Part shown: one piece after another, positions 11,601 to 45,562 of the stretch
How positions within the stretch are numbered: the stretch's first letter is position 1
Layout: every line of letters begins with the position of its first letter
Virus record (IMG/VR): IMGVR_UViG_3300012665_000509
Span: 12,337 to 76,336 of that record
Source of the DNA: a virus
Taxonomy: Duplodnaviria; Caudoviricetes
DNA length: 64,000 nt
Reading direction: 5' to 3' (one strand)
Translations under genes and position numbers: made by a program
Notes under the pieces: generated by a model
Told to the model about the DNA's origin: nothing
Databases searched by the model: none
Seen by the model: the letters and a program-made list of their open reading frames with translations, nothing else

Positions 11601-13187
11601 TACGTTAATCAGAAGACTGGTGAAGTATTATTTGATAACCAAGCAGTTAGTGTAACATCTGTAGAAGGTGTTGTGTTTACAGACGGTGTTAACACAACCA
11701 CACTAACCCCAACAGATATTACTACTGGTAACATTCGTATTAGCGGTAATACAATTAGTAGCTTGTCCGGCGACATCAATGTGTCGTCTGCTAGTGGCGC
11801 AATTAATTTACAAAATACAACATACGTTACTGGTGACTTAGACATTACCGGCGACCTAACCATCGGCGGCAATATTCAAATTGGCGACCAAACAACTGAT
11901 ACAATTAGCTTTGTTGGCGGAATCAACAGCGATTTAATTCCAGCAACTAATACAACTTATGATTTAGGTACATCTAGCTTACGTTGGAACAATGCGTACT
12001 TGAGTCGTATTGAAGTTGATGGAGTTGTTATTGACAGTAATACAATCAGCACAACTGTGGGCAATGATGATTTAAGTCTAGTTGCCAACGGTACTGGTCG
12101 TGTTTACATTCCAAGCAACGATGTACAAATTAATCAAAACTTAACTGTAACTCAAAACTTTACAGTTAGTACAGGAACAAGTTATTTAAAAAATATTGGT
12201 GTAACTGGAACTATTACACAAACCGGCGACTTTAATCAAACTGGTAATTTTACTACTAGCGGCACAGTACAATCAGATAACTTAACAGTCACCGGTACTA
12301 TAACATTACCAGAATTACAAATTAGTGCTAACACTATTTCAACAAAAGTTGCTGGCACAGATTTAAATCTTACTGCTAACGGCACTGGTAATGTTGTATT
12401 TGAAGGTATCAGAGTAACTAATAATGATATTCAAAGTACTGTTACTAATTCTAATATTACTTTAACTCCACAAGGTACCGGTACTGTAATTGTTAACAGC
12501 AATCAAAGTATTCAAATACCTGTAGGTACAACACTACAACGTCCAGGCGTGGGTGTAGCAACTAACGGTATGATCCGTTATAACACTGACCTTGGCGAAT
12601 ATGAAGGTTACAATAATGGTTACTGGTTAAAACTTGGTGGCGTTGCTGACGCAAGTCGTAATACACGCATCCTTCCAGAGCTAACACCTGGATCAAACAA
12701 CAATACGTTATACTTTTATGCTAACGATAACTTAACTGCGTTTATAGACAGTACTAAGTTGTTTGCTGAAAAGTTTCAGACTAGTAATTTAGATGTTAAC
12801 AATAATGTTATCAGTAGCATCAACACTGATACTGATATTAACATTACAACTAGTGGCACCGGCGGTGTTAGAGTAGGTAACTTAAAGATTTTTAACAATA
12901 CTATCACTAATACTGTAGCAGGCGCTGTAACAGAATTTGTACAAGGTGTAAACGGATTTGTAAGAATTCCCGGAACCAACGGGGTAGTAATTCCGTCAGG
13001 TGATACGCTAACACAACGACCATCTGGTTCAAACGCTGAACGCGGTATGATGCGATTCAACACTGACGGACAGTTAGTAGAAGTATATAACGGTACTAGT
13101 TGGTCAAGCGTTGCTGGTGCGTCCGGCGGTGTAACAACAGCAGAAGCTACTGAATTAGGTATTGCTTCAGCATTAATTTTTGGATAA
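8616..13187 (+). CDS. Large fibre/baseplate protein: beta-helix, one phycobiliprotein-like helical insert, LamG/ConA-like domain
   Basis: 1523 aa; N-terminus nearly identical to 5133. FGTGDFTLECWVYP...WSHIALTR...GYIDDARVSKG is a LamG pattern. CQRDMGYILDA insert. Confidence 0.75.
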   Translation: MAVGRISGPLLKANLLRDGVPLAFETDLLYLDVVNGRVGIKTASPDYDLDVNGTARTTNLIVPTNADIATFTFNGNTISSTAGQININPSTGNAVLYQAKLRVNNNLEISSNSIKTTVADDDLELSTLGTGQVQINSNVLVDGDLHATGSITADGSITIGDSNTDSIIFNADIASNIVPDANNTYDLGEVGKEWRTSYIQDVQTTTLSAANIQVNGIDLALPQGNIIYVAKNGNDTNAGLHENNPVATIEHAFTLATAGDTVYVFPGVYEERFPLEVPPGVTVHGTSLRSVTIKPTAATMYYDAFHVNGEATVEDFTIMGFHHDATGTLPEFTDNSQGTGHAFRFSSNTTTKTRSPYIRNITVITFGTASVLAIDGQVTETIDGLTRIKSIIDEIVTNGTVVKTPGNSQDPVTGVASDAGTGTLLQGLIDDVIHIINNGTLKANLPTITANGTAVTSGMLYNAAVLLEANRAFIKEEITAYVTATYPSPGFTYDIATCQRDMGYILDAMIYDIVRGGNEHTVYAGLAHWVQPENDPRGYGRGDAGHGALIDGSAVTANSTSASMLFHSVTFITPAADTLIATNGARVEWLNSFTYFAGKGLYIYSSEAGFANAGKTRLRINTRVGTWAVGNTVSYYDTDGTTLLASGVIEAVDGNYVDLTGRCLGFETVTDRTPTTIYVQGNAKLSTTQKKFGVSSLVLDGNGDYISALPQPDFNFGTGDFTLECWVYPTAVPTAGQYSFVMGQSAAGAGNSSCGLYLGSSAGTIYLYSFGTFGTINGAAVAANAWSHIALTREGNSFKLWINGTQAGSTLTYAGAMTSATTTNFTIGGNAGFNLYFTGYIDDARVSKGISRYSTTFTAPTVPLTGDLSTVLLLHFNGANNSTTMLDDGITFQDLRTSAGGTASIINFADYSQFGAEVRAIGSANVYGNYGAYGDGPGVIAYLVSQNFAYVGAGSLTTNDPNDRIDANEVVELNGAKIYRTSVDNEGNFRVGDNFYVNQKTGEVLFDNQAVSVTSVEGVVFTDGVNTTTLTPTDITTGNIRISGNTISSLSGDINVSSASGAINLQNTTYVTGDLDITGDLTIGGNIQIGDQTTDTISFVGGINSDLIPATNTTYDLGTSSLRWNNAYLSRIEVDGVVIDSNTISTTVGNDDLSLVANGTGRVYIPSNDVQINQNLTVTQNFTVSTGTSYLKNIGVTGTITQTGDFNQTGNFTTSGTVQSDNLTVTGTITLPELQISANTISTKVAGTDLNLTANGTGNVVFEGIRVTNNDIQSTVTNSNITLTPQGTGTVIVNSNQSIQIPVGTTLQRPGVGVATNGMIRYNTDLGEYEGYNNGYWLKLGGVADASRNTRILPELTPGSNNNTLYFYANDNLTAFIDSTKLFAEKFQTSNLDVNNNVISSINTDTDINITTSGTGGVRVGNLKIFNNTITNTVAGAVTEFVQGVNGFVRIPGTNGVVIPSGDTLTQRPSGSNAERGMMRFNTDGQLVEVYNGTSWSSVAGASGGVTTAEATELGIASALIFG

Positions 13188-19878: not shown

Positions 19879-22800
19879 ATGGCTGAATTTAAACTAGGTA
19901 GAATACGTTTTATATGGAAAGACGTATGGACTCCAAACACAACATACATCAAAGATGATATCATTAGAAATGGTGGTAAAACTTACGTCTGCGTTATCGG
20001 ACACGTAAGTGACGCTAATTTCTATACAGACTTTGATAATATACCTACACGTTGGAATCAAGTAGCTGACGGGTCTGAGTGGAAAGGTGATTGGGCTACT
20101 GGTACATTTTACAAGTTAAATGACTTGGTAAAAGATGGCGGCCGTTTATATATTTGTAACGAAAGCCATACAAGTGCTGGCTCTATTTCAAGTGTAACTG
20201 TTACTGGTAACTTAGTTGCCGGTGCTACAACTGTTACAGGATTATCAGATACTTCACAACTATTAGCAGGCATGTCACTAGCCATCCAAGGTGGTGGCGG
20301 AACTGTAACAGTAGCAACTGATACAATTATTTTAAGTGTTGACAGCCCTACTCAAGTTACTATTGATAAAGCATTAACCGGATCATCAACTGCTTCCGGA
20401 GCAACATTAGTATGGACTACTTCAACAGCTGGTCAACCAGCTGGCGGATCATCTGCCTTAGATGATGATCGTAGCAAGTGGGATTTATACATAACAGCAT
20501 TAGATTGGAAAGGTGATTGGGCTGTTTATACACGTTACCGTATTAACGACATTGTTCGTTACGGCGGACAATCGTATGTGTGTAACGAAGAACACGTTTC
20601 AGCAACTACACTAGCAGATGGTTTAGAAGACGACCTAGCCAAGTGGGACATTTATTCAGAAAGCTTTGAATGGAACCAAGACTGGACTCCTGCCACACGT
20701 TACAAACGCAATGATGTAATTTTATACGGTGGTCAAAGTTACGTTTGTAATTTAGGACACACATCGGCAGCTACTTATACACTAGGTTTAGAAGCAGATC
20801 AGAGCAAGTGGGATTACTTACACAAGGGTATCGAATACAAAACTGGTTGGGATCGTGGCGCAACTATTACTGCTAAAATTGATGACGGCTCTGGCGGAGC
20901 AGGTGATACACTAACAGTTACCGCTATTGCGTTTGGTTCATTACAACCAGGACAGTTATTATTTGGATCAGGTGTTATTGCCGGCACATACATTGTATCT
21001 CAATTAACAGGCACAACTGGTAGTACTGGTACATACCTTGTAAGTCAAGACCACACAATTACTTCTACAACTGTAACTGCTAAACGCAGATACAAGATTA
21101 ACGACATCGTTAAGTGGGGAGCAGATTTATGGATTTGTACAGACAACCATAGTTCAGACCCGGCTAACACATTTGAATCAGATGAAGATTTAGGTCGTTG
21201 GGAACGATTTGTTGAAGGTCTACAGTTTGAAAACAGCTGGGATAGCTCAACAATTTATCAACCAGGCGACGTAGTAACTTACGGTGGTTTTGCTTATATA
21301 TGTGATACTAACCACTCTAACAAAGTACCTACACAAAACCCAGTTGACTGGCAGTTGTTTACTACAGGATTTAAATTCCAAAACGACTACGACATTTCAA
21401 CAGCATATAAAGTTGGCGATGTAGTTCGTCTAAGCGGTTATACATACGTTGCTATTTTAGACAACGTTCAAGTAACCATTAACGCAATAAACACAACACC
21501 AACAGTTACAATTGGTATCGTTGATTATACAAACGTTATTACATTAAGTGCCCCGTCAACTAATCTAGTTGCTGGATTACCTATTACATTCACGGGAACT
21601 ACATTTGGTGGAATCCTTGACGTTGATCCAATTAGTGGTTTACCAAAACAATATTTTGTCAAGCAAGTAATCAGCGCAACACAATTTAATGTAAGTTTAG
21701 AACTAGCTGGCCCAGAAGTAGTTGTAACTACAGCCAACGGTACAATGGCACTTACAACAAATCCAGAACCACCATGCGAAGGATTCTGGAGCAGATTAAA
21801 CAGTGGTGTTAAGTGGATTGACCAAGCAGTTACTAACTCAGCAGTTACAGGTACAAACCTTATTGGTACAGGTACCGGCGCTAAGTTTGATGTAGTTCGT
21901 GAAGGTACATACTACTCAGTAACGTTAGCTGCAGGTTATCTTGGCACTGGATATGCTGCCAATGACACTATTAAGATTTTAGGTACATCATTAGGCGGTG
22001 TAACACCAACTAACGATTTAACAATTACAGTAGCAAGCATTAACGCTGGCGCTATTGATACTATTACATGGTCTGGTACCGCAGTAACTTGGAAGATTGG
22101 TACAGAATATAAACAAGGTGACACTGTCAAGTGGGGTGTAAGTACATTCCTTTGCGTATTACGTCACGTAGCTGAATACGATGTAGGACCTCCTGTGACA
22201 GGTAACCGCCCTGACATCGACTTAGATGGTACATATTGGAACATGTTAGCGGCAGGTGCTGAAGCAGCCGTACTAACAACCAAAGGTGATACACTATACT
22301 TTGGCGGCGCTGGTCCTACAAGATTGCCAATTGGTCAACCTGGACAAGTACTTAAAGTTCTAGGCGACACACCAGGTTGGGAATACTTTGGTGTTGTTGA
22401 TCACGTATACTATGTTGCTCCAAGCGGAATTGATTCGCCAGCTCCATTGTACGGAATTACAGTTGACAAGCCATGGAAAACTGTACGCTACGCAACTGAA
22501 CAAATTGCCAAAGGTCCTAAGAATTATAATTCTAAATACCTAATCGAAAATAATAGACAGTTCATACAAAAAGAAGTAACTGGATGGATTGCTAGTACAT
22601 ATACTGTAAACATTGGCAGTACTATTGCGTCTACAGACGGATTAAGACCAAATCAAATTGTGTTATCTAGCGGCACTACTGTTAATTTATCAGTTAATAT
22701 GCCTATTAAGGTTAGCGCAGACTTTGGTAATATGCTTGCCGCATCGACATATTATGTTAAGACTATTGTTTCTAATACACACTTTACTGTTAGCGCAACT

Positions 22801-25800
22801 GCTGGCGGTGTAGTATTTGCCCAAACAACTGCTAGTGGATCTATTACTGCGTCATTATCATATGATGCCGCTAAATGCGAAAGAGACGTTGGCTATGTAG
22901 TTGATGCGTTAGTATACGACTTGAGCCACGGTGGTAACTCACGTTCACGCAAAGCGGCTCTCAAATATGTTAATGAAGCACCACTAGTATATTCAAAACA
23001 ACAAAAAGTACAAACTGCAGCTGCCTTAAATTATGCGCTAACAGTTATTACTAATATTCTTAATAATACTCCTCCAGTAACTAGTTACCAAAATACTGTA
23101 GATCAAATTATTATTCCGGAGTTAGTACAAGACGCAGTTGCGTTGCCAACATTAACTACATTGACTGGTGTCATTACTAGTGCTATACTTGCTGGAACCG
23201 CAACTAATATTCCAGCTGAACAGTTAACCAACTACACTATCAACATTAAGACTGGTGTGTTCTATGAAGTGTTGCCAATTACAGTACCAGCTAACGTTGC
23301 GTTAGTTGGTGACGAATTGCGTTCAACAAATATTCGCCCAGCAACATCGTTAGTAAGTATTAGCGATGCTCCGTACTCACTAGACGGTTATACTAGATTA
23401 AAAGCAGTTATTGGAGATATTGTACAAGGTAATGCTATTACACCTTCAGCAGGTAATACATTAACACAATTTACTGATGGCCCTGTAGCAACTAGCACAG
23501 AAGCAACTACTGCTTCTTCATTAGTTAGCCAGCTAAGATATACAATTGATTCAAAATTAAATCTATTGAATGACGTAACATTAACTGCGCCAACAGATTA
23601 TAATACTGCTTACTTGGCAGGTTATGGCGATGCTCGTAATTTAATTGTAGCTAATACAGCATTTATACAAGCTGAATTAATTCAACGTATTACTAATAAC
23701 TATCCTTCATTAACATACGATCGTGTAAAATGTGCTAGAGATATTAAATTTATCATTGACGCACTACGTTATGACTTAACCTATGGTGGTAATGTAGCTA
23801 GTTTAGTAGCAGGTAACGCTTACTATGCTGGCGTTGGTGGTGCTTTACAAATTGGTTCTAGCGAATTAGCTGCAACTATTGACGCATACACTTACTTACA
23901 AAGTTTAGTACAAGACATAGCAGTTAACACAAGTGTAGTTCCGTTACAAACAGAAGTTACACAAGTTCCTGGTCCAGCAGGTAGTGCTCTAGCGGCTCTT
24001 GTTGCCATCGACTTAGTAAATAATATTATTACTACTATAAACTCTGGAACTGCTCCAGCAACAGTATTACCAGCTACAACTTGGGTTGCTAGTCCGTTAA
24101 CTACTGCTCAGGCAACATTAGATGCTGCCAAGGCAACAATCCGATCAAATACTATTTCTTGGATTAATTCAAACTACCCAACATTAGTATATGACACAGT
24201 AAAATGTTCACGTGATGTAGGTTATGTAATTGACGCATTGGGTTACGACTTTATGTTCAATGCTAACTTCCAAACATACAAAGCCGCACTAGCTTATGGT
24301 AGATTAAATGCTGCCGTAGCAGTGACTTCACAAAAAGCAGCCACAGTAGCGGCGTGGAATTATGTAAAGACTCAAGCACTTGCTAACGTTGGTGGTGACA
24401 CAACTGCCCAAGCTAGAATTACTGCTAACATGGACATGTTAATTAGCATTGTTGAGGCTAGCACATTTAACGGATCAAACGAGCCAACTAGCACTCAAGC
24501 TGCATATGATGCGGCAAGAATGTTAGAACTTAATAAAGACTTTTTAGCATTAGAAGTTACTCGTTATATTGCGGCTACATATCCAAGCTACACATACGAT
24601 GTAGAAAAATGTAAGCGTGATGTTAGAACTGTAGTTGACGCAATCAAAGAAGATTTAGTTTACGTTGGCAACTATAAAACAAGAACAGCGGCAATTTATT
24701 ATGTAAATGCTGTAACTGGATCTGAAAAATCAGACATGTTCTATGTACGTAATGGTACAGGTATTCGTAACATGACCTTACAAGGATTGTCAGGTTATCT
24801 AAGTTCTCCAAACGCTTATGGCACAAAACGTCCAACAGCCGGTTCATTCACTAGCTTAGATCCAGGATGGGGCCCAGATGATACATCAGCTTGGGTAACT
24901 AACAAATCTTGCTACGTACAAAACGTAACAACATTTGGTACAGGTTGCGTGGGCTGTAAGATTGACGGAACATTACACAATGGTGGTAACCGTTCTATCG
25001 TGTCTAACGACTTTACACAGATCTTAAGTGACGGTATTGGTGTATGGTGTACAGGAACAGAAGCACTAACTGAATTAGTGTCAGTGTTCTCATACTATGG
25101 ACACATGGGATACTTGGCAGAAGACGGTGGTAAGATTCGTGCTACTAACGGTAACAGCTCATATGGTACATATGGTTGCGTATCAGAAGGTGTTGACATT
25201 ACCGAAGTGCCTATTACTGCGGTAGTAGATAATCGTTACAACGAAGCTTCAATTACAAACGTAATTACTAATAACAGTCAAGTATGGGCAGTTGAATATC
25301 TTAACGCTGGATCATACTATGATCAGGCAACATATACAATTAACGGCGCTGGCGCAAACGCAACCGCAGTTGCTAATGAATTCCGTGACGATGCGGTGTT
25401 TGAAGTACGTATTACAGACCCAACTGACAGTAACGATATTGGCGGTTTAGGTTACATTACTTCAAGTAACATTGCCCAAGGTGGTAACACTACACAAATC
25501 ACACTAGCAGCCACTGACGGAAACCTAAGCAGTGCGTATGTTGGTATGCGTATTCAAATTACTAGTGGTACAGGTGTTGGCCAGTATGGTTATGTAAACA
25601 CATACAATAACGGTAGTAAGATTGCTACAATTCTTAAAGAGTCAACTGGTACAGCAGGTTGGGATCATGTAATTCCAGGCACACCGATTGCTTCTACACT
25701 CGACTTAACAACAGCATACATTGTTGAACCAAGAATTAGTTTTGGTGCTCCAGGATATGCTGCCACAGAAACAACACAAGTATCAGGAACATGGGTTGAT

Positions 25801-27966
25801 GCTACTTATGTTAGTATGAACGCTACATATACAGCAGTTGCAGCAACTGGCGGTAGTGGAACACTTGGCTTATTTGATGTTGTAAAAACTGGTAATACAT
25901 ATACAGTAACACTAAGCAGTGGCGGTAGCAACTATGTTGCCGGCGAAACATTATATATCGCAGGATCAGCACTTGGCGGCTTGGCAGGTGGATCACCTGG
26001 ATTTGCTAATGATATAACAATTAAGATTGTTACAGTAACTAGTGTTTCAAAAGCAATTACTAACTTTACATGGACTGGATATGCTAGTGGCGGACGTTAT
26101 GTTGCTATATCTGGCAACAGTACAGCAACGCAATATTCAACAAACGGACTTGTATGGGCTTCAGGCGGCGCATTGCCAGCAGGCACATATAGATCAGTTG
26201 TTTCTGGATTAGTTAGTAGCGTAAGCACACTTGTTGCTACCTCAAGCGCAACTAGTAACGTAACAGCAAAATCAGTAGATGGCGGTACTACTTGGACAGC
26301 AGGCGGTACATTACCGCAAAGCCGTAACTGGGAATCAGTTGCTTACGGTAACGGAGTATTTGTCACAGTCGCAAAAGGCACTGGAACAAATCCATCAACA
26401 GATTCTGCGTATTCAGTAAACGGCGGAACAGCATGGGTATCGGCCGCGTTACCAAACGCAGCCTGGACCGGTGTAGCGTTTGGTGCTGGAAAATTTGTAG
26501 CAATCGCAACTGGTACACAAACTAGTGCTTATTCAACAAGCAACGGACAAATTTGGTTAACTGCTCCGGTAGGATTACCGTCAACAGCAACTTGGTCAAG
26601 TATTACATATGGTAATAACAGATTCGTAGCTATTGGTGGATACGGTGCTAACTCAACTGCGTCAGCATACTCGTTAGACGGTATTACATGGTACGCAGGC
26701 GGAACTTTACCAGCTAACCAGCAGTGGTCTAGTGTGCATTACGGCCAAGGTGTGTTTATGGCATCAGCAGACACTGGAGTTATTGCTACCAGTGAAGATG
26801 GTGTATTGTGGACAACACAGGCTCTAACAACAAGCGGAATATGGACTGGCGCTGTTGCGTTTGGTAATCCAAATTGGAATCCAGCCTGGGTTCAATTATC
26901 TTCAACTACTACTGCTAACAGAATTGTTACTGGTGCTAAGGCCAAAGGCCGCGCAAGAGTAACTGACAATAAGATTGTAGAGATTAGAATTACCGATCCA
27001 GGTAGCGGTTACACATCAACACCGCTTATGGCGATTGGCGATCCTAATAGAACACAAGTATTAACATGGCAAGTTCGTACAGGCAAAGGCGCATTAGCTA
27101 ACCCAACCTTTACTAACAGAGGAACATTATATAGTACTGCTACCGCAACATTAACTGGTAACGGTTACTCGGACTTGTATCAATACGGTACATACGTTAA
27201 CGTTAAGAGTTTAACAGCTAACCCAACAGCGGGTTCTAACGTAGTATTTGATGGAGTAGCTGGAATTTACAAACTAGTTAACGTGAGAAACTTTGTTGCG
27301 GACAACGGCACTTATGTTGCTAGATTCCAAGTAAGTCCTCCAATGTCAGTGTTTGCTAGCCCAGAACACGAAGCTAGCACAGTTATGCGTATTAGATACT
27401 CACAAGTACGTCTAACTGGACATGACTTATTAAGTATTGGTACTGGTAATTTCCAGACTACTAACTATCCAGGATTACCACTTCAAGCCGCTGATCCGGC
27501 AAAAGAATTGGTAGAACGTGGAGGCGGTCGTGTGTTCTACACAAGTACTGACCAAGATGGTAACTTTAGAGTAGGTACATTGTTCAGTATTGAACAGGCA
27601 ACGGGTGTTGCGACTCTAAACGCAGATGCGTTTAACTTAGCAGGATTGAACGAACTAACACTAGGTTCAGTGGCCTTAGGCGGCGCTGGTGCTACAATTA
27701 GTGAGTTCTCAACAGATCCGTTCTTTACTGCTAATAGTGACGCAATCATACCAACACAACGAGCAATCAAGGCGTATATTAACAGTCAAATTGGTGGCGG
27801 TGGCTCCCAATTGAACGTAAATACATTAACGGCGGGCGTAATCTTTATCGCGAATAACTCGATATCGACAACATCTGGAGTTCAAATTAACGTACCAAGT
27901 AAGATGAACTTCACAGGCGGCATTGACGGAAGTCCAGTCGCAATGAACTTCTTTTTACTAGGATAA
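19879..27966 (+). CDS. Giant tail fibre/baseplate protein with four phycobiliprotein-like helical inserts
   Basis: 2695 aa with the same MAEFKLGRIRF start and domain skeleton as 13931; KCxRD motifs with Cys codons at 22876, 23731, 24205 and 24610. Confidence 0.75.
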   Translation: MAEFKLGRIRFIWKDVWTPNTTYIKDDIIRNGGKTYVCVIGHVSDANFYTDFDNIPTRWNQVADGSEWKGDWATGTFYKLNDLVKDGGRLYICNESHTSAGSISSVTVTGNLVAGATTVTGLSDTSQLLAGMSLAIQGGGGTVTVATDTIILSVDSPTQVTIDKALTGSSTASGATLVWTTSTAGQPAGGSSALDDDRSKWDLYITALDWKGDWAVYTRYRINDIVRYGGQSYVCNEEHVSATTLADGLEDDLAKWDIYSESFEWNQDWTPATRYKRNDVILYGGQSYVCNLGHTSAATYTLGLEADQSKWDYLHKGIEYKTGWDRGATITAKIDDGSGGAGDTLTVTAIAFGSLQPGQLLFGSGVIAGTYIVSQLTGTTGSTGTYLVSQDHTITSTTVTAKRRYKINDIVKWGADLWICTDNHSSDPANTFESDEDLGRWERFVEGLQFENSWDSSTIYQPGDVVTYGGFAYICDTNHSNKVPTQNPVDWQLFTTGFKFQNDYDISTAYKVGDVVRLSGYTYVAILDNVQVTINAINTTPTVTIGIVDYTNVITLSAPSTNLVAGLPITFTGTTFGGILDVDPISGLPKQYFVKQVISATQFNVSLELAGPEVVVTTANGTMALTTNPEPPCEGFWSRLNSGVKWIDQAVTNSAVTGTNLIGTGTGAKFDVVREGTYYSVTLAAGYLGTGYAANDTIKILGTSLGGVTPTNDLTITVASINAGAIDTITWSGTAVTWKIGTEYKQGDTVKWGVSTFLCVLRHVAEYDVGPPVTGNRPDIDLDGTYWNMLAAGAEAAVLTTKGDTLYFGGAGPTRLPIGQPGQVLKVLGDTPGWEYFGVVDHVYYVAPSGIDSPAPLYGITVDKPWKTVRYATEQIAKGPKNYNSKYLIENNRQFIQKEVTGWIASTYTVNIGSTIASTDGLRPNQIVLSSGTTVNLSVNMPIKVSADFGNMLAASTYYVKTIVSNTHFTVSATAGGVVFAQTTASGSITASLSYDAAKCERDVGYVVDALVYDLSHGGNSRSRKAALKYVNEAPLVYSKQQKVQTAAALNYALTVITNILNNTPPVTSYQNTVDQIIIPELVQDAVALPTLTTLTGVITSAILAGTATNIPAEQLTNYTINIKTGVFYEVLPITVPANVALVGDELRSTNIRPATSLVSISDAPYSLDGYTRLKAVIGDIVQGNAITPSAGNTLTQFTDGPVATSTEATTASSLVSQLRYTIDSKLNLLNDVTLTAPTDYNTAYLAGYGDARNLIVANTAFIQAELIQRITNNYPSLTYDRVKCARDIKFIIDALRYDLTYGGNVASLVAGNAYYAGVGGALQIGSSELAATIDAYTYLQSLVQDIAVNTSVVPLQTEVTQVPGPAGSALAALVAIDLVNNIITTINSGTAPATVLPATTWVASPLTTAQATLDAAKATIRSNTISWINSNYPTLVYDTVKCSRDVGYVIDALGYDFMFNANFQTYKAALAYGRLNAAVAVTSQKAATVAAWNYVKTQALANVGGDTTAQARITANMDMLISIVEASTFNGSNEPTSTQAAYDAARMLELNKDFLALEVTRYIAATYPSYTYDVEKCKRDVRTVVDAIKEDLVYVGNYKTRTAAIYYVNAVTGSEKSDMFYVRNGTGIRNMTLQGLSGYLSSPNAYGTKRPTAGSFTSLDPGWGPDDTSAWVTNKSCYVQNVTTFGTGCVGCKIDGTLHNGGNRSIVSNDFTQILSDGIGVWCTGTEALTELVSVFSYYGHMGYLAEDGGKIRATNGNSSYGTYGCVSEGVDITEVPITAVVDNRYNEASITNVITNNSQVWAVEYLNAGSYYDQATYTINGAGANATAVANEFRDDAVFEVRITDPTDSNDIGGLGYITSSNIAQGGNTTQITLAATDGNLSSAYVGMRIQITSGTGVGQYGYVNTYNNGSKIATILKESTGTAGWDHVIPGTPIASTLDLTTAYIVEPRISFGAPGYAATETTQVSGTWVDATYVSMNATYTAVAATGGSGTLGLFDVVKTGNTYTVTLSSGGSNYVAGETLYIAGSALGGLAGGSPGFANDITIKIVTVTSVSKAITNFTWTGYASGGRYVAISGNSTATQYSTNGLVWASGGALPAGTYRSVVSGLVSSVSTLVATSSATSNVTAKSVDGGTTWTAGGTLPQSRNWESVAYGNGVFVTVAKGTGTNPSTDSAYSVNGGTAWVSAALPNAAWTGVAFGAGKFVAIATGTQTSAYSTSNGQIWLTAPVGLPSTATWSSITYGNNRFVAIGGYGANSTASAYSLDGITWYAGGTLPANQQWSSVHYGQGVFMASADTGVIATSEDGVLWTTQALTTSGIWTGAVAFGNPNWNPAWVQLSSTTTANRIVTGAKAKGRARVTDNKIVEIRITDPGSGYTSTPLMAIGDPNRTQVLTWQVRTGKGALANPTFTNRGTLYSTATATLTGNGYSDLYQYGTYVNVKSLTANPTAGSNVVFDGVAGIYKLVNVRNFVADNGTYVARFQVSPPMSVFASPEHEASTVMRIRYSQVRLTGHDLLSIGTGNFQTTNYPGLPLQAADPAKELVERGGGRVFYTSTDQDGNFRVGTLFSIEQATGVATLNADAFNLAGLNELTLGSVALGGAGATISEFSTDPFFTANSDAIIPTQRAIKAYINSQIGGGGSQLNVNTLTAGVIFIANNSISTTSGVQINVPSKMNFTGGIDGSPVAMNFFLLG

Positions 27967-37603: not shown

Positions 37604-40600
37604 ATGGCTAAGCAAAGACTTCAAAATTATGTGTTTTTACCAGGAGTGGCTAGTAGCAGTAATGCCTACCCCGACGCTTATTGGTTAATAGAAGCTAACA
37701 AAACTTTTATTAAGAAAGAAGCAATCGCATATTTAGGTGCGACAATTGCTAGCGATACCGCAGTAAACTATAATCCGTATGCTGTTACTCTATTAACACT
37801 TAACAAAGCATTTTTATTAGATGAAATGGTAGCTTGGATTAATTACCAAGTAGCTAACAGTATTTCTCCGTTTGTAGGTTATACCTACGATGCTAGCAAG
37901 TGTCGTAGAGATCTAGGTTATATGATTGACGCTATCATATATGACGTTCGATACGGCGGTAATGAAAAAACTATTGAGACATTAAAACAATACTGGCTAA
38001 GCGGTGTTGCTCAAGTACGCCAGTTTGCCGAAGTAGCATTTTACGGACAATTAAGAACAATTTTAAACAACAGCATTTTATCAAACTCGCTGTATATTAG
38101 CCAACAAAGTCCCGTAGTTTCAACACAACAAGTAACATTAAACAATGCTGAAGATTCAGCAGTTACTAATGTGTACACTCTATTAACACTTACGAGTAAC
38201 GTAATACAAAACGGATTGTCAGTATTACCTGCGCCAGCAAGCATTGTATACCCTGACGCGGTTAATGCTATTAGTATTAACAAACAATTCTTAAAAGATG
38301 AAATTGCCGCATGGATTGCTGAACAAGTAGAGGCTGAAAGTGAGTATAATTTAAAGCCTAATGCCTATTCATCATTAATACTTAATAAAACATTTATTGG
38401 TGAAGAAGCAGTTGCTTGGATCAATATACAAATAGCCGGCAACATTGCGCCATTTGTTAGCCCAAACATTGTTACATACGATCCAAGCGGAACTAAGTGT
38501 AAACGTGACATTGGCTATATTGTAGATGCTATTGCTAAAGACTTACGATTTGGCGGCAATGAAAATTTAAGAAAAGTATTGTCAATGTATTGGATTAACG
38601 GCGTTGCGCAAATTGACGGCCCACGTACTCCAGAAGTTGCTACTTACGAATTTGTTAAGACATTAATTAACAATTATATTTTACCGCAAGTCACATATAC
38701 TAGCGCACAAACAAACGTATCTCAAAACTTATCCGGTAGTGCTCCTGAGACAGGTGTAATTACTACAGTTGCTAGTTTCCTTGACTCAGCTAAGAGTACT
38801 ATTGAACTTGGCCTTGCTAGTTTGCCAACAGCAGTAGCTCCAACATATCCGTGGGGTGCCTACACTTATAATAAAGAAAAATGTAAACGCGATGTTGGTT
38901 ATATTGTTGATGCGTACATCTATGACCTAAGCTACGGCGGAAATGAAAAGACTAGAGAAACTGTTAGCTTATATTGGTCAGGTACTACTCCGCAGATTGA
39001 CGGCAGTAGAATACAGGAAGAATTAGCACACACCCAATTACGCGACATTATTAAAAATTATATTATTCCAGGTGTGACGTACGAAACATCGCAGGCTACA
39101 CCAGTAGACAGTAGTCAAGTGTTAGTAGCCGCAGGTGAAGTAGCCGCCGTTACAAAAATTAACACACTAGCAGGCATCGTTACAGATGTGATAGTTAACG
39201 GATTAACAGCACTACCAGATTTAGAAACAGGTGCTAACTTAAACTTCTCAACTAGAAATTTTGCCGGCTACACTTATGATTCAGCTAAGTGCGAACGAGA
39301 CATGAACTATGTGTTAGACGCATACTTAAATGACTTACGTTACGGCGGAAATTATAGAACTAGATTTATTGTATCTCGTTACTGGGAAGGAACACAAGCA
39401 CAAGTTGACGGTGATAGAAAACCAGAAATTGCTGTACATAATTTTATTCGTGACTTAATCAACAATCGAATTATACCACAGTCAGTTAGTGATGCCCCAT
39501 ATCAAAGTACTTACGATCAAGTTACTAATTTAGGTAAGACTGGTGAAGTAGCCGCAAAATCTAGTATCAGTGCTTTAGCATTTATTGTTACTAACGTAAT
39601 AACCAACGGGTTATCAGCAATACCAGCATTAGTTAACGGTGTTACTACTATTAAGGTTCAAGGCAAACACGAGTTAGGTGAAATATTATTAATTACAAAT
39701 ACATCTAACAATGAAATATTATACAACTTTAGTGATCCAACAATTAAAGGTATCATTACATTTGATTCAACATATAACAGTAACGGTATTGCTAGAGAAG
39801 AAGACTTTCCTAAATTCTTACAAACAGCAGACTACGTTACAACTATTACCTTAGACGTTGATACAAGCAACCGCTTCCGTGACGATCAAATTCAAATATT
39901 TGTTGAACAAAAAGAAATGCGTGTTCGACCATACGACTTTGGCACAGATGCTATCGAACGTATGCGTGTTGCGCAACCACAGTCTATGCTTGACGCTGAC
40001 TTTGAGTATGGATTACAACCAACTAAGTGGCAAGCAATTGGTATTAGCCGAGGCTACCCGTCAGTGTACGAAATCCCAGGTACTGATACACAAGTATTAT
40101 CAGTAGTAACTGATGCGTCTACTGGAACAGGCGGCATCGGCCAATCATTAATTACAGTTACAACAGCCGGCTCACATGGTTTTACTGTTGGTACTCCAAT
40201 AACTATCCGAGCACTGGCTAATACAATTAGCGGCTTTAGTCGAGCAGAAGGCACTTTCTTAATACAAGGTGTACCGTCGCTAACAACATTTACATATTAT
40301 GCCGTATCTAAAGTAGGTACTAGTAATGGCCAAATTCTTGCTACTACATATACACAGTTACGCAAAGGTGCGTTCTATACAGGCGCGGCACTAGGCCAGC
40401 CAACATTTAACGTTGCTTCAAACGGAACATTAGCTACTCTTACAACAGTATTCAACACACCGGCAGGCGGAGACCAGTTAGCATGGTCTGGATCAAATGT
40501 CCCAGACATTGGTTCACCGTTATCTGGAACAGGAATAGGTAGTGGCGCACAGATTACTGCTGTTGTTGGTACAGGCGGATTATCAGTAACTTCAGACATT

Positions 40601-43600
40601 GAGTTTGACGTGCCAATTAATGCTACTTCAATGGTACTAACAGACGCAACCGGCGTATTAGAAGGTATGGCCATAGACAACGGCTCTGGTACTGCTATAT
40701 TTGTATCGGGCATTGCTAGTAACACTATTAGTTTTACTGGCCCTATTACAACATTCCGACGCGGTAATACAGCAACCTATATAAATGTATCTGGTACAAA
40801 CATAAATTCTAACGGCACTGGAGCAACGTTCAGTGTTGATCGTGTGCTAGGAGTATATCAAGTATCAATTATTACACCAGGTAGTGATTATATTGTTGGA
40901 AATCGAATTAAAATATTAGGTACTGACCTTGGTGGTGCTGACGGTGTTAACGATTTAATTATAACTGCTGCCACTGTAACAGAACCTAACGGTGTACTTA
41001 CTTTTGACAACGCAACATTAGTTGGTGGTACTGGCTATAGCAATACAACTTATCCTACAACAGGTGGCGACGGTACCGGATTAACTGTTGATGTAGTAGT
41101 TGACGGTAGCAATATTATTACAAGCGTAACAATTAATAATCCAGGCACAGGATATGCCGCAGCCGACGTTATTACTATAGACGGCGGCGACGATAATGCT
41201 ACAATAACTGTACTAACTGTAGGCGGCGGCCTAATTACTGGAATTACAACACAAGGTACGTCAGTGACTGGCGGTGCGTCATATCCGTTGTTAACACAAA
41301 ATTCTGTAACAAGCGGAGGTTCATATACTGAAGTTCCGCAACAAAGCACAAGTGGTGGCGGAAGTGGATCTAAGTTTAATGTCATCCGTCAATTTGGTGC
41401 TTATGGTGTTACACTTGCTACCGGATTTGAAGGTACTGGGTACGCTGTAAATGATACTATTACTTTATTAGGAACCTTAGTTGGCGGTTCAACTCCGGCA
41501 AACGACATCACAATAACCGTAACTGGTATTACCGATGAAGGTGCCGGTACTGGCCCAATTACAACATTTACTAGCGCAGGTACTGGTACTAGCACAAGTT
41601 CAGGTGCTGATGTATTGTTCACAATCAATCGAGCGTTAAGTGTGTACACTATTGGAGAAATTACACAAGCCGGTACTGGATATCTAGAAGGTGATAACAT
41701 TGTAATTTTAGGAACAGATCTTGGCGGCTTAACACCAGACAATGATTTAATTATTACCGTAACCGGAGTAGACCTTGACGGCGGCGTGGCAGCAACATCG
41801 GTTGCTGGTGTGGCTATTACTGGTAACGCAACGTTTGGAACATTACCTGGCACTAATATTGTACCAACAGGCGCAGATGCTTCGTTTAATGTTACCCGTT
41901 CAGGTGGCGGCTACACTAACGTTGTAGTCAATAATCCAGGTACTAATTATTTCCAAGGCGATCAGATTACATTGTTAGGTACAAGTCTAGGTGGATTAAG
42001 CCCGGCAAACGATGTAGTTATTCGTGTAACTGGCGTAACATCTAACAGTATTAATACAGCTTCAATTATATCTGGTACTGCTATTACAGGAACAACAGTT
42101 GGTTATTATTCAGGAATAGCATTTAGTGAATTAACAACAGCCGCAATTCCCGCAGGTTCTACAATTAACGCATCGGCAATCGCATTAATTGAAGTTATTT
42201 TCCAATCACCGCACGGATTAATTCCAGGCGCAAACTTATTAGTTGATATTACTAGTAACGGTACAAACCATGCGTTAGCAAAAGGTCCGTTCTATGCTGA
42301 ACAAGTACCTACAGTAAACACTGTACGATATACCGTAAGAGCGACCGGTACTGTTGATACCGGTACGGCGTTGGCCGGTATTGTGTACGCTAGACCAGAC
42401 AGCTACTTTGTCCACAGACCATATGACGGCGGTGTTCAATTAGGTACCGGCGGTCCACAACACGGTGCTCAAGCAATTCGTATGAGTAAGAAATATATTC
42501 GTTACCAATCAGGTAAGGGTATTATGTACACCACCGGTGCGCTATTTGCTCCGAGCTATAGTTTACAAAACTTAACAGCTACTGGTCTTACTGCTGGATC
42601 ATATATCACTATTACTACAGACGATGTTGACCACGGCTGTCAAGTTGGCGGTGTTATTAAGATCAATGGTGTAGATACTGGCGGATATAACGGCATCTAT
42701 ACAGTAGTTGATGTGATTAATGAACGTCAACTAAGAGTTCAAGCACAGGGCGGCTTAGCCAATGTATACGCAACTATTACAACTAACGCACAAATGTCCA
42801 TACAAAACTGGCACGGTGCTACTGTACGAGCAGGTGTGTATGATGACCAGAACGGTATGTATTGGCAATATGACGGTAGAAATCTAGCAGTTGGTCGTAG
42901 AAGCTCAACATTCCAGTTATCGGGTGTAGTAAACATTGCTAGAGACACTAACGTGATCACTGGTATTAATACACGATTCCGTGATCAAATTAAAGCAGGT
43001 GACAGAATTGTTATCAAAGGTATGACTCATGTGGTATCAAACGTAACAAGTCAGACCAGCATGTCAGTGACTCCAGACTATCGTGGAGCAGTTGATTGCG
43101 TACAATCTAAAGTGTGTTTAGTACAAGATTTAATTATTAATCAAAATGACTTTAACTTAGATCGATTAGACGGCACAGGGCCAAGCGGCTATAATCTTGA
43201 CACATCATTTATGCAGATGATTGGTATTCAGTATAGCTGGTATGGTGCTGGATTTATTGATTACATGCTACGTGGTAGTGACGGTAATTATGTATTCGCG
43301 CACAGAATTCGTAACAGTAACGTAAACACTGAAGCGTATATGCGTACTGGTAACTTACCAGTTCGATACGAAGTTATTAATGAAAGTGCTTTTGGTAAAC
43401 TAGCGCAATCTATTACTAGAACACAAACAACAATACCTTTATTAGATGCGTCTGCTTTCCCAGATGAGTCTGGCATTGTTTATATTGACAACGAATTAAT
43501 TGCGTTCAGCGGCAAAGTAGACAATTCATTAGTTGGATGTACACGTGGCGCACCAATGACAAACTTTGTGGGAGGCGCACAACGCACATTCCGAGCAGGT

Positions 43601-45562
43601 TTTGCCGCAACACACGAATACAATACTGGGGTAATTTTAGTAAGTAACACCATTAGTCCAATTATTAGTCACTGGGGTAGTGCGTTCTTAACAGACGGTT
43701 TATTTGACGAAGATCGCGGTTACATTTTTAACTACGCATCTACAGGTATTTCAATTAGTACTACAAAAACCACAGCGTTCTTAATACGATTAGCACCAAG
43801 TGTGTCAAACGCTATTGTTGGTGACTTAGGCGAACGAGAATTAATTAACAGAGCGCAATTACTATTAAAAGAAATTGCTATTACTTCTGATACAGGTACT
43901 GGTGGTATCGTTGTTGAAGGGGTATTGAATCCACAAAACTATCCATTAAACCCTAGCGCAATTAGTTGGGGCGGATTAGCTGGACTATCACAAGGTGGTC
44001 AGCCTAGCTTTGCGCAGATTGCTCCAGGCGGTTCTGTAAACTGGAATAGCGGATCATCACAACAAACGTCTACAGGTACAACACTAGGCACAATATCAGG
44101 AAACTTAACAGTTCCAACTGGCACTGCTTTTAACAGACCAAGCGGCACTACATTTGCCTATGTTACAAAAACAAGTTGGGATAATTTAGGAGCGTCAACT
44201 GGATTTGCAATAAGTGACGGTAAAATCCCAGCAGGCGCAACAATAACAACTGTTACAGCTAGCCCACTTCCTATAGCAACTGTACTTGACACTGTGTCGA
44301 CTACAATGGCAACATTTGGCCCAACATTGTCAACTGCCGGCGGAAGTATTTCTGGCACAACTGCTACAGTATTTTTACCTAACCAGTCGTTTGTACCGTA
44401 CCCAACTGGTAGCACTATTGCTGTTGCAGGAGTATCGCCGGCAAACTTTAATGGAACGTTTACTGTTATTAATGCTGGCACTAACTTTGTACAATATACC
44501 ACTAGTGGCGCCGCTGGTAATATGACTGTTAACGGTAACGTATCTACTAGATACCCAGCAGGCAGTAACGTGTTGAGAATCACTAAAGCAAGTTGGGAAG
44601 CTATGACTAACCCAGTGAACGCAACTGGATTTAGAGCAAGTACTAGTTACTTCCCGGTTGACACATTTGTAACTGCGGTAAGTGTTATTCAAGGCACTAC
44701 ACCTAATCAGTGGTACAACGTTACTTTTAGTAAAGTAACTAGCACAGTGATTGCTAACAACGTTAACATACCAATGTCTATTGGTGGAACATACGGTTCA
44801 CAAACTACTGCGTACTATACCTCAGCAAGCTGGAACGCTTTACCAGTTGATGTGCCTATTGTTGGTGCCACAACTTCTGATGCTAAATGGATTAGCGGCG
44901 CTACTATTACTAGTATTACCGCACTAAGAACGTTTGCCGGCACTGGTTATTATGCTGTGGTTCATAATAATCCTGCGGCGCTAAGTGGTAATCAAACAGT
45001 AACATATAATTCTACACAATACTATACAGTATTCTTTAGTACAGCATCTTCAAGCGCAATAAGTTCTACAAATACTATTGGATTACAACTAGCACCAAGT
45101 ACTATTACTACCAACACGTTGTATTTTACACAAGCAAGTTGGGAAGCCTTAGTTGCTAGTTATGGTATTTCAACTGGTACTGAATTGGGAGATACTAAGT
45201 ATCCAGCTGGTACTCGTGTACAAACAGTTAGCGCATTAAGAACGTTCTCGGGCACTACTTACTATACGGTAACATTTACGCAGACGTCTAATGCTGTTAT
45301 TCCAGGCGCAAGTACAATTACATTCAAGTTTGGACAACCGCCTTACGCACTACCAGGTGAAACAGTATTTTCGTTCATTGCGCAACCAGGTGGTAACTCA
45401 GCACTTGACTTGTCAGAATTGAAAGAATTGACTAATACTACATTAGGTGGTAGAGGAACATATCCAAACGGTCCTGACGTATTAGCGATTAACGTCTATA
45501 AGGTGTCAGGCACACCAGTTACATCTAACATTGTTGTACGTTGGGGTGAAGCGCAGGCTTAA
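37604..45562 (+). CDS. Giant virion structural protein (baseplate/fibre) with four N-terminal phycobiliprotein-like domains
   Basis: 2652 aa. KCxRD motifs with Cys codons at 37901, 38498, 38882 and 39290; several G(T/A)GA.F.V.R...Y...I..PG..Y..GD.I.ILGT.LGG..P.ND repeats around 40800-42050. Confidence 0.75.
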   Translation: MAKQRLQNYVFLPGVASSSNAYPDAYWLIEANKTFIKKEAIAYLGATIASDTAVNYNPYAVTLLTLNKAFLLDEMVAWINYQVANSISPFVGYTYDASKCRRDLGYMIDAIIYDVRYGGNEKTIETLKQYWLSGVAQVRQFAEVAFYGQLRTILNNSILSNSLYISQQSPVVSTQQVTLNNAEDSAVTNVYTLLTLTSNVIQNGLSVLPAPASIVYPDAVNAISINKQFLKDEIAAWIAEQVEAESEYNLKPNAYSSLILNKTFIGEEAVAWINIQIAGNIAPFVSPNIVTYDPSGTKCKRDIGYIVDAIAKDLRFGGNENLRKVLSMYWINGVAQIDGPRTPEVATYEFVKTLINNYILPQVTYTSAQTNVSQNLSGSAPETGVITTVASFLDSAKSTIELGLASLPTAVAPTYPWGAYTYNKEKCKRDVGYIVDAYIYDLSYGGNEKTRETVSLYWSGTTPQIDGSRIQEELAHTQLRDIIKNYIIPGVTYETSQATPVDSSQVLVAAGEVAAVTKINTLAGIVTDVIVNGLTALPDLETGANLNFSTRNFAGYTYDSAKCERDMNYVLDAYLNDLRYGGNYRTRFIVSRYWEGTQAQVDGDRKPEIAVHNFIRDLINNRIIPQSVSDAPYQSTYDQVTNLGKTGEVAAKSSISALAFIVTNVITNGLSAIPALVNGVTTIKVQGKHELGEILLITNTSNNEILYNFSDPTIKGIITFDSTYNSNGIAREEDFPKFLQTADYVTTITLDVDTSNRFRDDQIQIFVEQKEMRVRPYDFGTDAIERMRVAQPQSMLDADFEYGLQPTKWQAIGISRGYPSVYEIPGTDTQVLSVVTDASTGTGGIGQSLITVTTAGSHGFTVGTPITIRALANTISGFSRAEGTFLIQGVPSLTTFTYYAVSKVGTSNGQILATTYTQLRKGAFYTGAALGQPTFNVASNGTLATLTTVFNTPAGGDQLAWSGSNVPDIGSPLSGTGIGSGAQITAVVGTGGLSVTSDIEFDVPINATSMVLTDATGVLEGMAIDNGSGTAIFVSGIASNTISFTGPITTFRRGNTATYINVSGTNINSNGTGATFSVDRVLGVYQVSIITPGSDYIVGNRIKILGTDLGGADGVNDLIITAATVTEPNGVLTFDNATLVGGTGYSNTTYPTTGGDGTGLTVDVVVDGSNIITSVTINNPGTGYAAADVITIDGGDDNATITVLTVGGGLITGITTQGTSVTGGASYPLLTQNSVTSGGSYTEVPQQSTSGGGSGSKFNVIRQFGAYGVTLATGFEGTGYAVNDTITLLGTLVGGSTPANDITITVTGITDEGAGTGPITTFTSAGTGTSTSSGADVLFTINRALSVYTIGEITQAGTGYLEGDNIVILGTDLGGLTPDNDLIITVTGVDLDGGVAATSVAGVAITGNATFGTLPGTNIVPTGADASFNVTRSGGGYTNVVVNNPGTNYFQGDQITLLGTSLGGLSPANDVVIRVTGVTSNSINTASIISGTAITGTTVGYYSGIAFSELTTAAIPAGSTINASAIALIEVIFQSPHGLIPGANLLVDITSNGTNHALAKGPFYAEQVPTVNTVRYTVRATGTVDTGTALAGIVYARPDSYFVHRPYDGGVQLGTGGPQHGAQAIRMSKKYIRYQSGKGIMYTTGALFAPSYSLQNLTATGLTAGSYITITTDDVDHGCQVGGVIKINGVDTGGYNGIYTVVDVINERQLRVQAQGGLANVYATITTNAQMSIQNWHGATVRAGVYDDQNGMYWQYDGRNLAVGRRSSTFQLSGVVNIARDTNVITGINTRFRDQIKAGDRIVIKGMTHVVSNVTSQTSMSVTPDYRGAVDCVQSKVCLVQDLIINQNDFNLDRLDGTGPSGYNLDTSFMQMIGIQYSWYGAGFIDYMLRGSDGNYVFAHRIRNSNVNTEAYMRTGNLPVRYEVINESAFGKLAQSITRTQTTIPLLDASAFPDESGIVYIDNELIAFSGKVDNSLVGCTRGAPMTNFVGGAQRTFRAGFAATHEYNTGVILVSNTISPIISHWGSAFLTDGLFDEDRGYIFNYASTGISISTTKTTAFLIRLAPSVSNAIVGDLGERELINRAQLLLKEIAITSDTGTGGIVVEGVLNPQNYPLNPSAISWGGLAGLSQGGQPSFAQIAPGGSVNWNSGSSQQTSTGTTLGTISGNLTVPTGTAFNRPSGTTFAYVTKTSWDNLGASTGFAISDGKIPAGATITTVTASPLPIATVLDTVSTTMATFGPTLSTAGGSISGTTATVFLPNQSFVPYPTGSTIAVAGVSPANFNGTFTVINAGTNFVQYTTSGAAGNMTVNGNVSTRYPAGSNVLRITKASWEAMTNPVNATGFRASTSYFPVDTFVTAVSVIQGTTPNQWYNVTFSKVTSTVIANNVNIPMSIGGTYGSQTTAYYTSASWNALPVDVPIVGATTSDAKWISGATITSITALRTFAGTGYYAVVHNNPAALSGNQTVTYNSTQYYTVFFSTASSSAISSTNTIGLQLAPSTITTNTLYFTQASWEALVASYGISTGTELGDTKYPAGTRVQTVSALRTFSGTTYYTVTFTQTSNAVIPGASTITFKFGQPPYALPGETVFSFIAQPGGNSALDLSELKELTNTTLGGRGTYPNGPDVLAINVYKVSGTPVTSNIVVRWGEAQA

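Follow-up and report, generated by a model that had tools for sequence, protein, structure and literature searches.

A stretch of 64,000 nucleotides (the window in what follows), corresponding to positions 12,337 to 76,336 of the IMG/VR virus record IMGVR_UViG_3300012665_000509, contains an open reading frame (ORF) on the plus strand (37604-45562) that is open throughout and encodes a virion structural protein of 2652 aa, here P0001. Analysis of the N-terminal region of this protein indicates that residues 21-683 very probably comprise four domains of the phycobiliprotein fold nested within one another like brackets. The protein itself, whose matches in PHROGs are virion structural and tail fibre families, is a giant component of the tail or baseplate in an uncultured virus of cyanobacteria (a cyanomyovirus). 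An initial annotation, made from the sequence alone, had proposed that the half-domains of this region parse as nested brackets, and the proposal is supported by the balanced order of the halves in orthologs, by the orthology of the split halves, by covariation and by a unit spanning residues 215..533 in an AlphaFold model. The pairing of the halves rests on the comparative and covariation evidence.

Each domain can be read as two halves, which structural alignment with VIA-align assigns to helices A and B (N half) and to helices E, F, G and H (C half) of phycobiliproteins. An exact motif scan of the 2652 residues located the N-half motif at residues 25, 60, 219 and 254. The C-half motif (Y.Y...KC.RD..Y followed by [YF]GGN) was confined to positions 93/117, 292/316, 420/444 and 556/580, with KC.RD at residues 99, 298, 426 and 562. 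The same eight pieces were recovered by hidden Markov models (HMMs) of the two halves, trained only on giant homologs (>2900 aa), none of which is in the ortholog group of the window protein. The N pieces were found at 28-44 (E-value 2.5e-8), 60-80 (2.8e-5), 219-238 (3.7e-4) and 254-274 (5e-6), and the C pieces at 90-210 (1e-26), 297-410 (9e-24), 417-540 (2.5e-30) and 553-676 (1.4e-29). When residues 1-690 were shuffled 200 times, the best E-values reached were 8.7e-4 for N and 5.7e-5 for C, so that even the weakest piece, the third N half, scored better than all of the shuffles. The resulting order, N N C N N C C C, is the one given in the initial annotation, whose coordinates agree to within about 10 nt, and it recurs in four homologs of 83-94% identity from independent datasets.

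Placed on the plus strand of the window, these pieces outline the proposed arrangement. Residues 1-20 form a conserved leader, MAK..NY.F.PG, defined by ortholog comparison (37604..37663). The first N half, N1, located by motif scan and HMM (residues 21-52, with helices at 23-31 and 33-50; 37664..37759), would be the A-B helical hairpin of the outermost domain, domain 1. Its B-E loop would hold two domains, the contiguous domain 2 (residues 56-214; 37769..38245) and domain 3. The A-B hairpin of domain 3, N3, was also located by motif scan and HMM (residues 215-246; 38246..38341) and is predicted with a local distance difference test score (pLDDT) of 84-89; the loop that follows would hold the contiguous domain 4 (residues 250-414; 38351..38845). 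The third C half (residues 417-543; 38852..39232), placed by the C-half tree and by the structural alignment over residues 215..533, would complete domain 3. The last C half (residues 553-679; 39260..39640), which bears a KCERD signature and was placed by the C-half tree and its collinear downstream flank, would complete domain 1.

The relationship of these domains to phycobiliproteins was examined both in structure and in sequence. An AlphaFold2 model of residues 1-690, built from a 19-row alignment (pLDDT 73.4), was compared with the PDB. Foldseek matched it to phycoerythrin beta chains with a probability of 1.00. VIA-align superposed domains 2 and 4 on phycobiliprotein chains with Z of 13-14.4 and a root-mean-square deviation (rmsd) of 2.2-3.0 Å over 120-136 residues; residues 55-202 of the model (domain 2) aligned with chain residues 34-172/177 at Z up to 14.4, and residues 250-401 (domain 4) aligned at Z 13.0-13.2. 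In all, 203 chains reached Z >= 8, and the top 50 rows were phycobiliproteins, bar one entry titled only 'Bacterial fluorescent protein'. In sequence, a search of PDB sequences with residues 1-690 using phmmer gave no match. A profile of five copies from the window, searched against the PDB, returned only 16 phycocyanin alpha sequences (best E 0.0086), on which KCxRDxGY aligned with KC(A/V)RD(I/V)GYY, the Cys84 bilin-attachment site. In addition, the phycocyanin alpha family TIGR01338 of NCBIfam matched residues 94-140 with an E-value of 1.8e-6, at only 28 bits against a cut-off of 269, and the giant homologs exceed the gathering cut-off of PF00502 in their own right (35-50 bits against 22.2). 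Homology is thus visible in sequence through the five-copy profile, NCBIfam and the Pfam matches of the homologs, and the fold search agrees. These results bear out the label 'phycobiliprotein-like' used in the initial annotation, and the domain of the module is a true relative of phycobiliproteins.

The Cys-x-Arg-Asp motif is kept in all four copies of the window. The codons equivalent to that of Cys84, identified by motif scan and profile alignment, lie at 37901..37903 (Cys100, domain 2), 38498-38500 (Cys299), 38882-38884 (Cys427) and 39290-39292 (Cys563), all on the plus strand. Among 1853 C-half copies, conservation is 99% for the Cys, 99% for the Arg and 100% for the Asp. Compared with phycobiliprotein subunits (PF00502; CpcA/B, CpeA/B, ApcA/B), the phage domain has the same globin-like core of helices A, B, E, F, G and H, and the detectable sequence homology is centred on helix E, with KCxRDxGY...GG on the Cys84-Arg86-Asp87 site. 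The differences are that it shares only about 12% identity, that it lacks the X-Y hairpin and that, whereas the subunits are free proteins of ~165 aa, it lies within a virion protein of >2600 aa, with up to four copies per module in the window and >20 in giant homologs, and with domains split by other domains. In phycobiliproteins, the N-terminal X-Y helical hairpin serves alpha-beta pairing, and the B-E loop borders the chromophore site.

Which halves belong together was addressed by comparison with orthologs. HMM parsing of homologs of 1879-2800 aa gave NNCC in 8 proteins, NNCNCC in 8, NNCNCNCC in 15, NNCNNCCC in 5 (the window protein included) and NNNCCCNC in 9, where N and C denote the two halves. 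All 45 parsed orthologs, across these five orders, are balanced bracket strings. A 46th, P0012, is balanced after a divergent fifth N half, missed by the HMM and read by eye, is counted; it has a short divergent extra domain at residues 257-367. The number of N halves equals that of C halves in every ortholog. In contrast, the giant homologs (3000-4400 aa) are mostly tandem arrays of the NCNC... type, which indicates that nesting is a property of this ortholog group and not of the parser. Relatives in IMG/VR form a graded series that runs from proteins with no domain through one contiguous N1-C domain and an N1-C domain split by a beta domain to NNCC and NNCNCNCC. At the lower end of this series, six orthologs (L027, L029, L031, L033, L039 and L044) pass from the leader, MAK..Y.FTPG, to LLLITN within ~15 residues, and their existence implies that the whole module is optional.

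Homologs carrying fewer repeats were compared, as the initial annotation had suggested; single-domain relatives have a contiguous N1-C domain, and the C half of that domain groups with the last C half of the window protein. In the C-half tree, an exclusive clade with Shimodaira-Hasegawa (SH)-like support of 0.86 unites every one of the 21 C halves whose partner is N1, among them the last C half of the window protein; 17 of the 21 are split and 4, from single-domain orthologs, are contiguous. Left to itself, MAFFT placed the single-domain orthologs on N1 and on the last C half and bridged the inserts by a single long gap, and the downstream flank is collinear in the single-domain relatives. The opening of this half in the orthologs is always (N/P)FA.Y.YD..KCERD. 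For domain 3, the third C half of the window protein forms an exclusive clade with the contiguous fifth piece of NNCNCC orthologs (a C half; support 0.87), and N3 groups in the N-half tree with the contiguous fourth piece (an N half; support 0.885); these two pieces are the halves of one and the same domain. The C half of domain 4 falls in a clade with the innermost C half of NNNCCCNC orthologs (support 0.995), and a junction, PTYP(W/F)G.YTY, is common to the window protein and the triple-nested orthologs. Nearest-neighbour lists agree with the groupings of the trees. Within the protein, the C halves most alike are the last two (47% identity), and the identity matrix is uninformative for the N halves. 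A larger alignment with full-length proteins, A4, was dropped after the invariant columns of the last C half were lost in it, and an alignment designated A3 was used instead.

A further line of evidence came from mean-field direct coupling analysis (DCA) of 1144 unique contiguous domains, taken only from giant proteins (effective number of sequences, Meff, 649). Several of the strongest couplings in the whole domain join an N-half position to a C-half position. In one of them, N9-C20, the Lys/Arg of the NK motif is coupled with the Asp of the (I/V)DA motif, and the pair alternates with Ile-Ser in ~100 copies; this covariation probably reflects a salt bridge between helices for which the uncharged Ile-Ser pair can substitute. 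When all possible matchings of N with C halves were scored on the K strongest inter-half couplings (K = 10, 20 or 50), the nested matching of the window protein ranked 1 of 24 at each K. Among 65 unique orthologs, which are interrelated, the nested matching was the best in 44 at K = 10, compared with 14.2 expected by chance.

The structural model adds to this picture. In a wide VIA search with the model of residues 1-690, the globin chain 1ith_B aligned over residues 215..533 (114 residues, rmsd 3.5 Å, Z 6.5), a span that opens with residue one of N3 and closes where helix H of the third C half ends. The low rmsd over this span suggests that it forms one compact unit in which domain 4 is skipped. 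The packing of the third N half with the C half that follows domain 4, for which the initial annotation had proposed an AlphaFold model, is therefore supported by a single alignment that spans both. An NNCC ortholog (L001, residues 1-358) was also modelled from alignment A3, and with good confidence: a pLDDT of 84.1, a predicted template modelling score (pTM) of 0.69 and a pLDDT of 90-91 for N1.

Several observations weigh against the nested arrangement or limit its support. The row that joins N3 with the third C half is a single one at Z 6.5, of which only the first and last aligned residues are at hand. For the 690-residue model, VIA rows cover domains 2, 4 and 3 only, and no row joins N1 with the last C half. 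In the NNCC model, 50 of 50 VIA rows fall on the inner domain, so that the packing of N1 with the last C half was not seen directly; on the strength of the sequence comparisons, we infer that N1 would pack with the last C half. Support values in the C-half tree reach only a moderate level (0.86-0.87), and the shortness of the N halves prevents a robust tree for them. As for covariation, the orthologs are related and not independent, and the nested matching rarely ranks first in the NNNCCCNC orthologs. Picking the single best C half for each N half performs weakly (58% for contiguous controls and 38-44% for split pairs, with chance at about one third); the score of the whole matching alone is informative. 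Finally, a Pfam scan of the whole 2652-aa protein gave no match at E up to 1.

Other readings of the eight pieces have to be weighed against this background. N1 and N3, the only extra helices before N2 and N4, could be accessory hairpins that take the X-Y role for the domain that follows, which would leave the last two C halves as truncated domains devoid of A-B. In favour of this reading, VIA alignments stretched to model residues 33-38 or 228 place the second helix of N1 or N3 on chain residues 13-33, in the X-Y region. In such stretched alignments, however, the rmsd rises from about 2.5 Å to about 6 Å, and the X-Y hairpin was not seen in the good ones, which start near chain residue 34. Moreover, both N1 and N3 bear the A-B motif itself (NK.F...E..A.WI) instead of another sequence, N1 in single-domain orthologs runs straight into a C half that belongs to the last-C clade, and every ortholog has as many N as C halves. 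The Asp at C20 is kept in all C halves, including those that would be truncated, and its covarying partner is the Lys of NK in the N half. Accessory hairpins are accordingly judged improbable.

Slightly less probable still is a crossed or swapped pairing of the halves, in which N1 might go with the first C half and N2 with the last, or a pairing between different chains of a fibre multimer; the domains would then be swapped instead of nested. Most fibre proteins are trimers, often intertwined, and some entries of the DCA matrix that lie off the brackets exceed those on them, as in the case of the N half at residue 219, which scores higher with the C half at 90 than with that at 417. The whole nested matching nevertheless outranks the other 23 for the window protein, N2 and N4 are joined to the C half that follows by the canonical short linker of contiguous domains, and residues 55-202 and 250-401 align as complete units in the VIA superpositions. 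A swap of the outer halves between chains would be compatible with the models obtained here, which are of monomers. It is hardly credible that faulty assembly, a frameshift or short motifs recurring by chance produced the order, and nothing was found in favour of this reading: the frame is open over 2652 aa, HMM E-values go down to 1e-30 when set against the shuffles, and the occurrence of the same order in four homologs from other datasets argues that it does not stem from assembly.

The preferred reading, recursive insertion into the B-E loop, can be formulated as follows. The four domains of residues 21-683 would have been joined by insertion of the domain into its own B-E loop, a process that in the ortholog group goes up to three deep, and the entire cluster would itself be an insertion between the 20-residue leader and the body of the protein. 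The product would be a compact branched cluster instead of a string of beads. Nesting may be easy because the ends of helices A and H are presumably close to each other and the B-E loop would lie at the surface and tolerate inserts. Most likely, the module is an exposed, accessory part of a baseplate or fibre protein, and its size may be tuned by gain or loss of domains. As to function, it would serve as a variable, branched N-terminal module of a virion protein. Since every copy keeps Cys-x-Arg-Asp, binding of a bilin or a similar ligand by the domains is a serious possibility, suggested by residue conservation. That the nested cluster works as a chromophore holder, with one bilin per domain at Cys-x-Arg-Asp, is a further step that we regard as doubtful.

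Insertions of other kinds were observed in the orthologs. Some ortholog domains are interrupted, either where B meets E or within the G-H loop, by a beta-rich domain of ~115 aa (…TPTDATY.PATG…GITF.C…LHPYPR…); it is present in L025 and L036 (residues about 55-165), in L013, L020, L022, L024, L030 and L045, and in L015, which carries it at both sites. Its insertion in the G-H loop points to a second permissive site. In an NNCC ortholog, L035, ~650 aa of repeated beta domains (residues about 180-830) lie between the inner and the last C half, so that the outer domain holds an exceptionally large insert. In P0025, an unassigned insert of ~110 aa (residues 243-355) separates an N half from its C half. 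The window also encodes a neighbouring protein of 2695 aa (ORF 19879-27966), which on sequence comparison contains four tandem copies of the same domain (residues 881-1628; 22519..24762, plus strand). The first of these has an insertion of ~80 aa at the junction between A-B and E-H. The fourth ends after the F helix, just before a beta-helix-like region, and may be another split domain. The presence of inserts at the B-E junction in this neighbouring protein, in P0025 and in several orthologs suggests that the junction is permissive.

The gene setting agrees with a virion function. The window covers a block of structural genes from a T4-like myovirus, among them those for the major head protein, baseplate wedge proteins, tail fibres, sheath, sheath stabiliser and terminase, and the 2652-aa ORF sits within its cluster of baseplate, fibre and sheath genes. 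CpeT was not found in the phage record; the record is a 76-kb fragment, 21% complete, so that this absence is uninformative. Among isolated phages, tblastn detected the domain family in 211 records at 24-30% identity, all of them from Synechococcus or Prochlorococcus phages, and a Foldseek search of BFVD matched isolated cyanophage proteins with E-values down to 1e-11. The same domain family therefore occurs in tail, structural and tail-fibre proteins of T4-like cyanophages (S-CAM1, S-PM2, S-WAM2, S-H9-1 and S-ShM2), which are distant; no close relative was found among isolates. The isolate records name these products tail, short tail fibre or structural proteins and do not mention a phycobiliprotein domain. 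No description of phycobiliprotein domains in phage virion proteins was found in the open-access literature.

Two known systems offer partial parallels. The PB-loop of ApcE, the core-membrane linker of the phycobilisome, lies between helices B and E. This loop, of 50-70 residues, interrupts the alpha-type domain of ApcE (PMC11789067), which is likewise a phycobiliprotein-type domain with an extra stretch inside. VIA alignments with ApcE chains comprise ~115-125 aligned residues spread over a chain range of ~190, which fits an insert in the same region. Unlike the inserts of the phage protein, however, the ApcE insert is a loop, neither a folded copy of the same domain nor recursive. In the Si3 insertion of the cyanobacterial RNA polymerase beta′ subunit, four of the eight SBHM domains are built from distant parts of the chain (PMC10895346). 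Si3 consists of one fold whose copies are not in simple tandem, and is thus a precedent for nesting of the same fold. It differs in being a beta-sandwich in a cellular enzyme, unrelated in sequence and function, whereas the phage fold is all-helical and host-derived and the copy number of the phage module varies from 0 to 5 among close orthologs. The arrangement proposed here combines two known elements, domain insertion and the phycobiliprotein fold.

In conclusion, the ortholog group provides a clean natural series of protein growth in which copies of one domain are placed inside each other, with close orthologs that carry 0, 1, 2, 3, 4 or 5 domains in six bracket orders. It also reveals that cyanophages have recruited a light-harvesting fold of the host as a component of their virion proteins. 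The near-total conservation of the bilin site makes pigment binding by the virion testable, and opens to experiment the old puzzle of why cyanophages carry genes for bilin synthesis and bilin lyases. If the cluster were indeed a chromophore holder, a baseplate or fibre protein of the virion would present pigments in a fixed spatial arrangement. T4-like cyanophages would then have, among their own proteins, a substrate for the products of their bilin-synthesis and lyase genes, and it would be conceivable that the particle senses light or adsorbs in a light-dependent manner.

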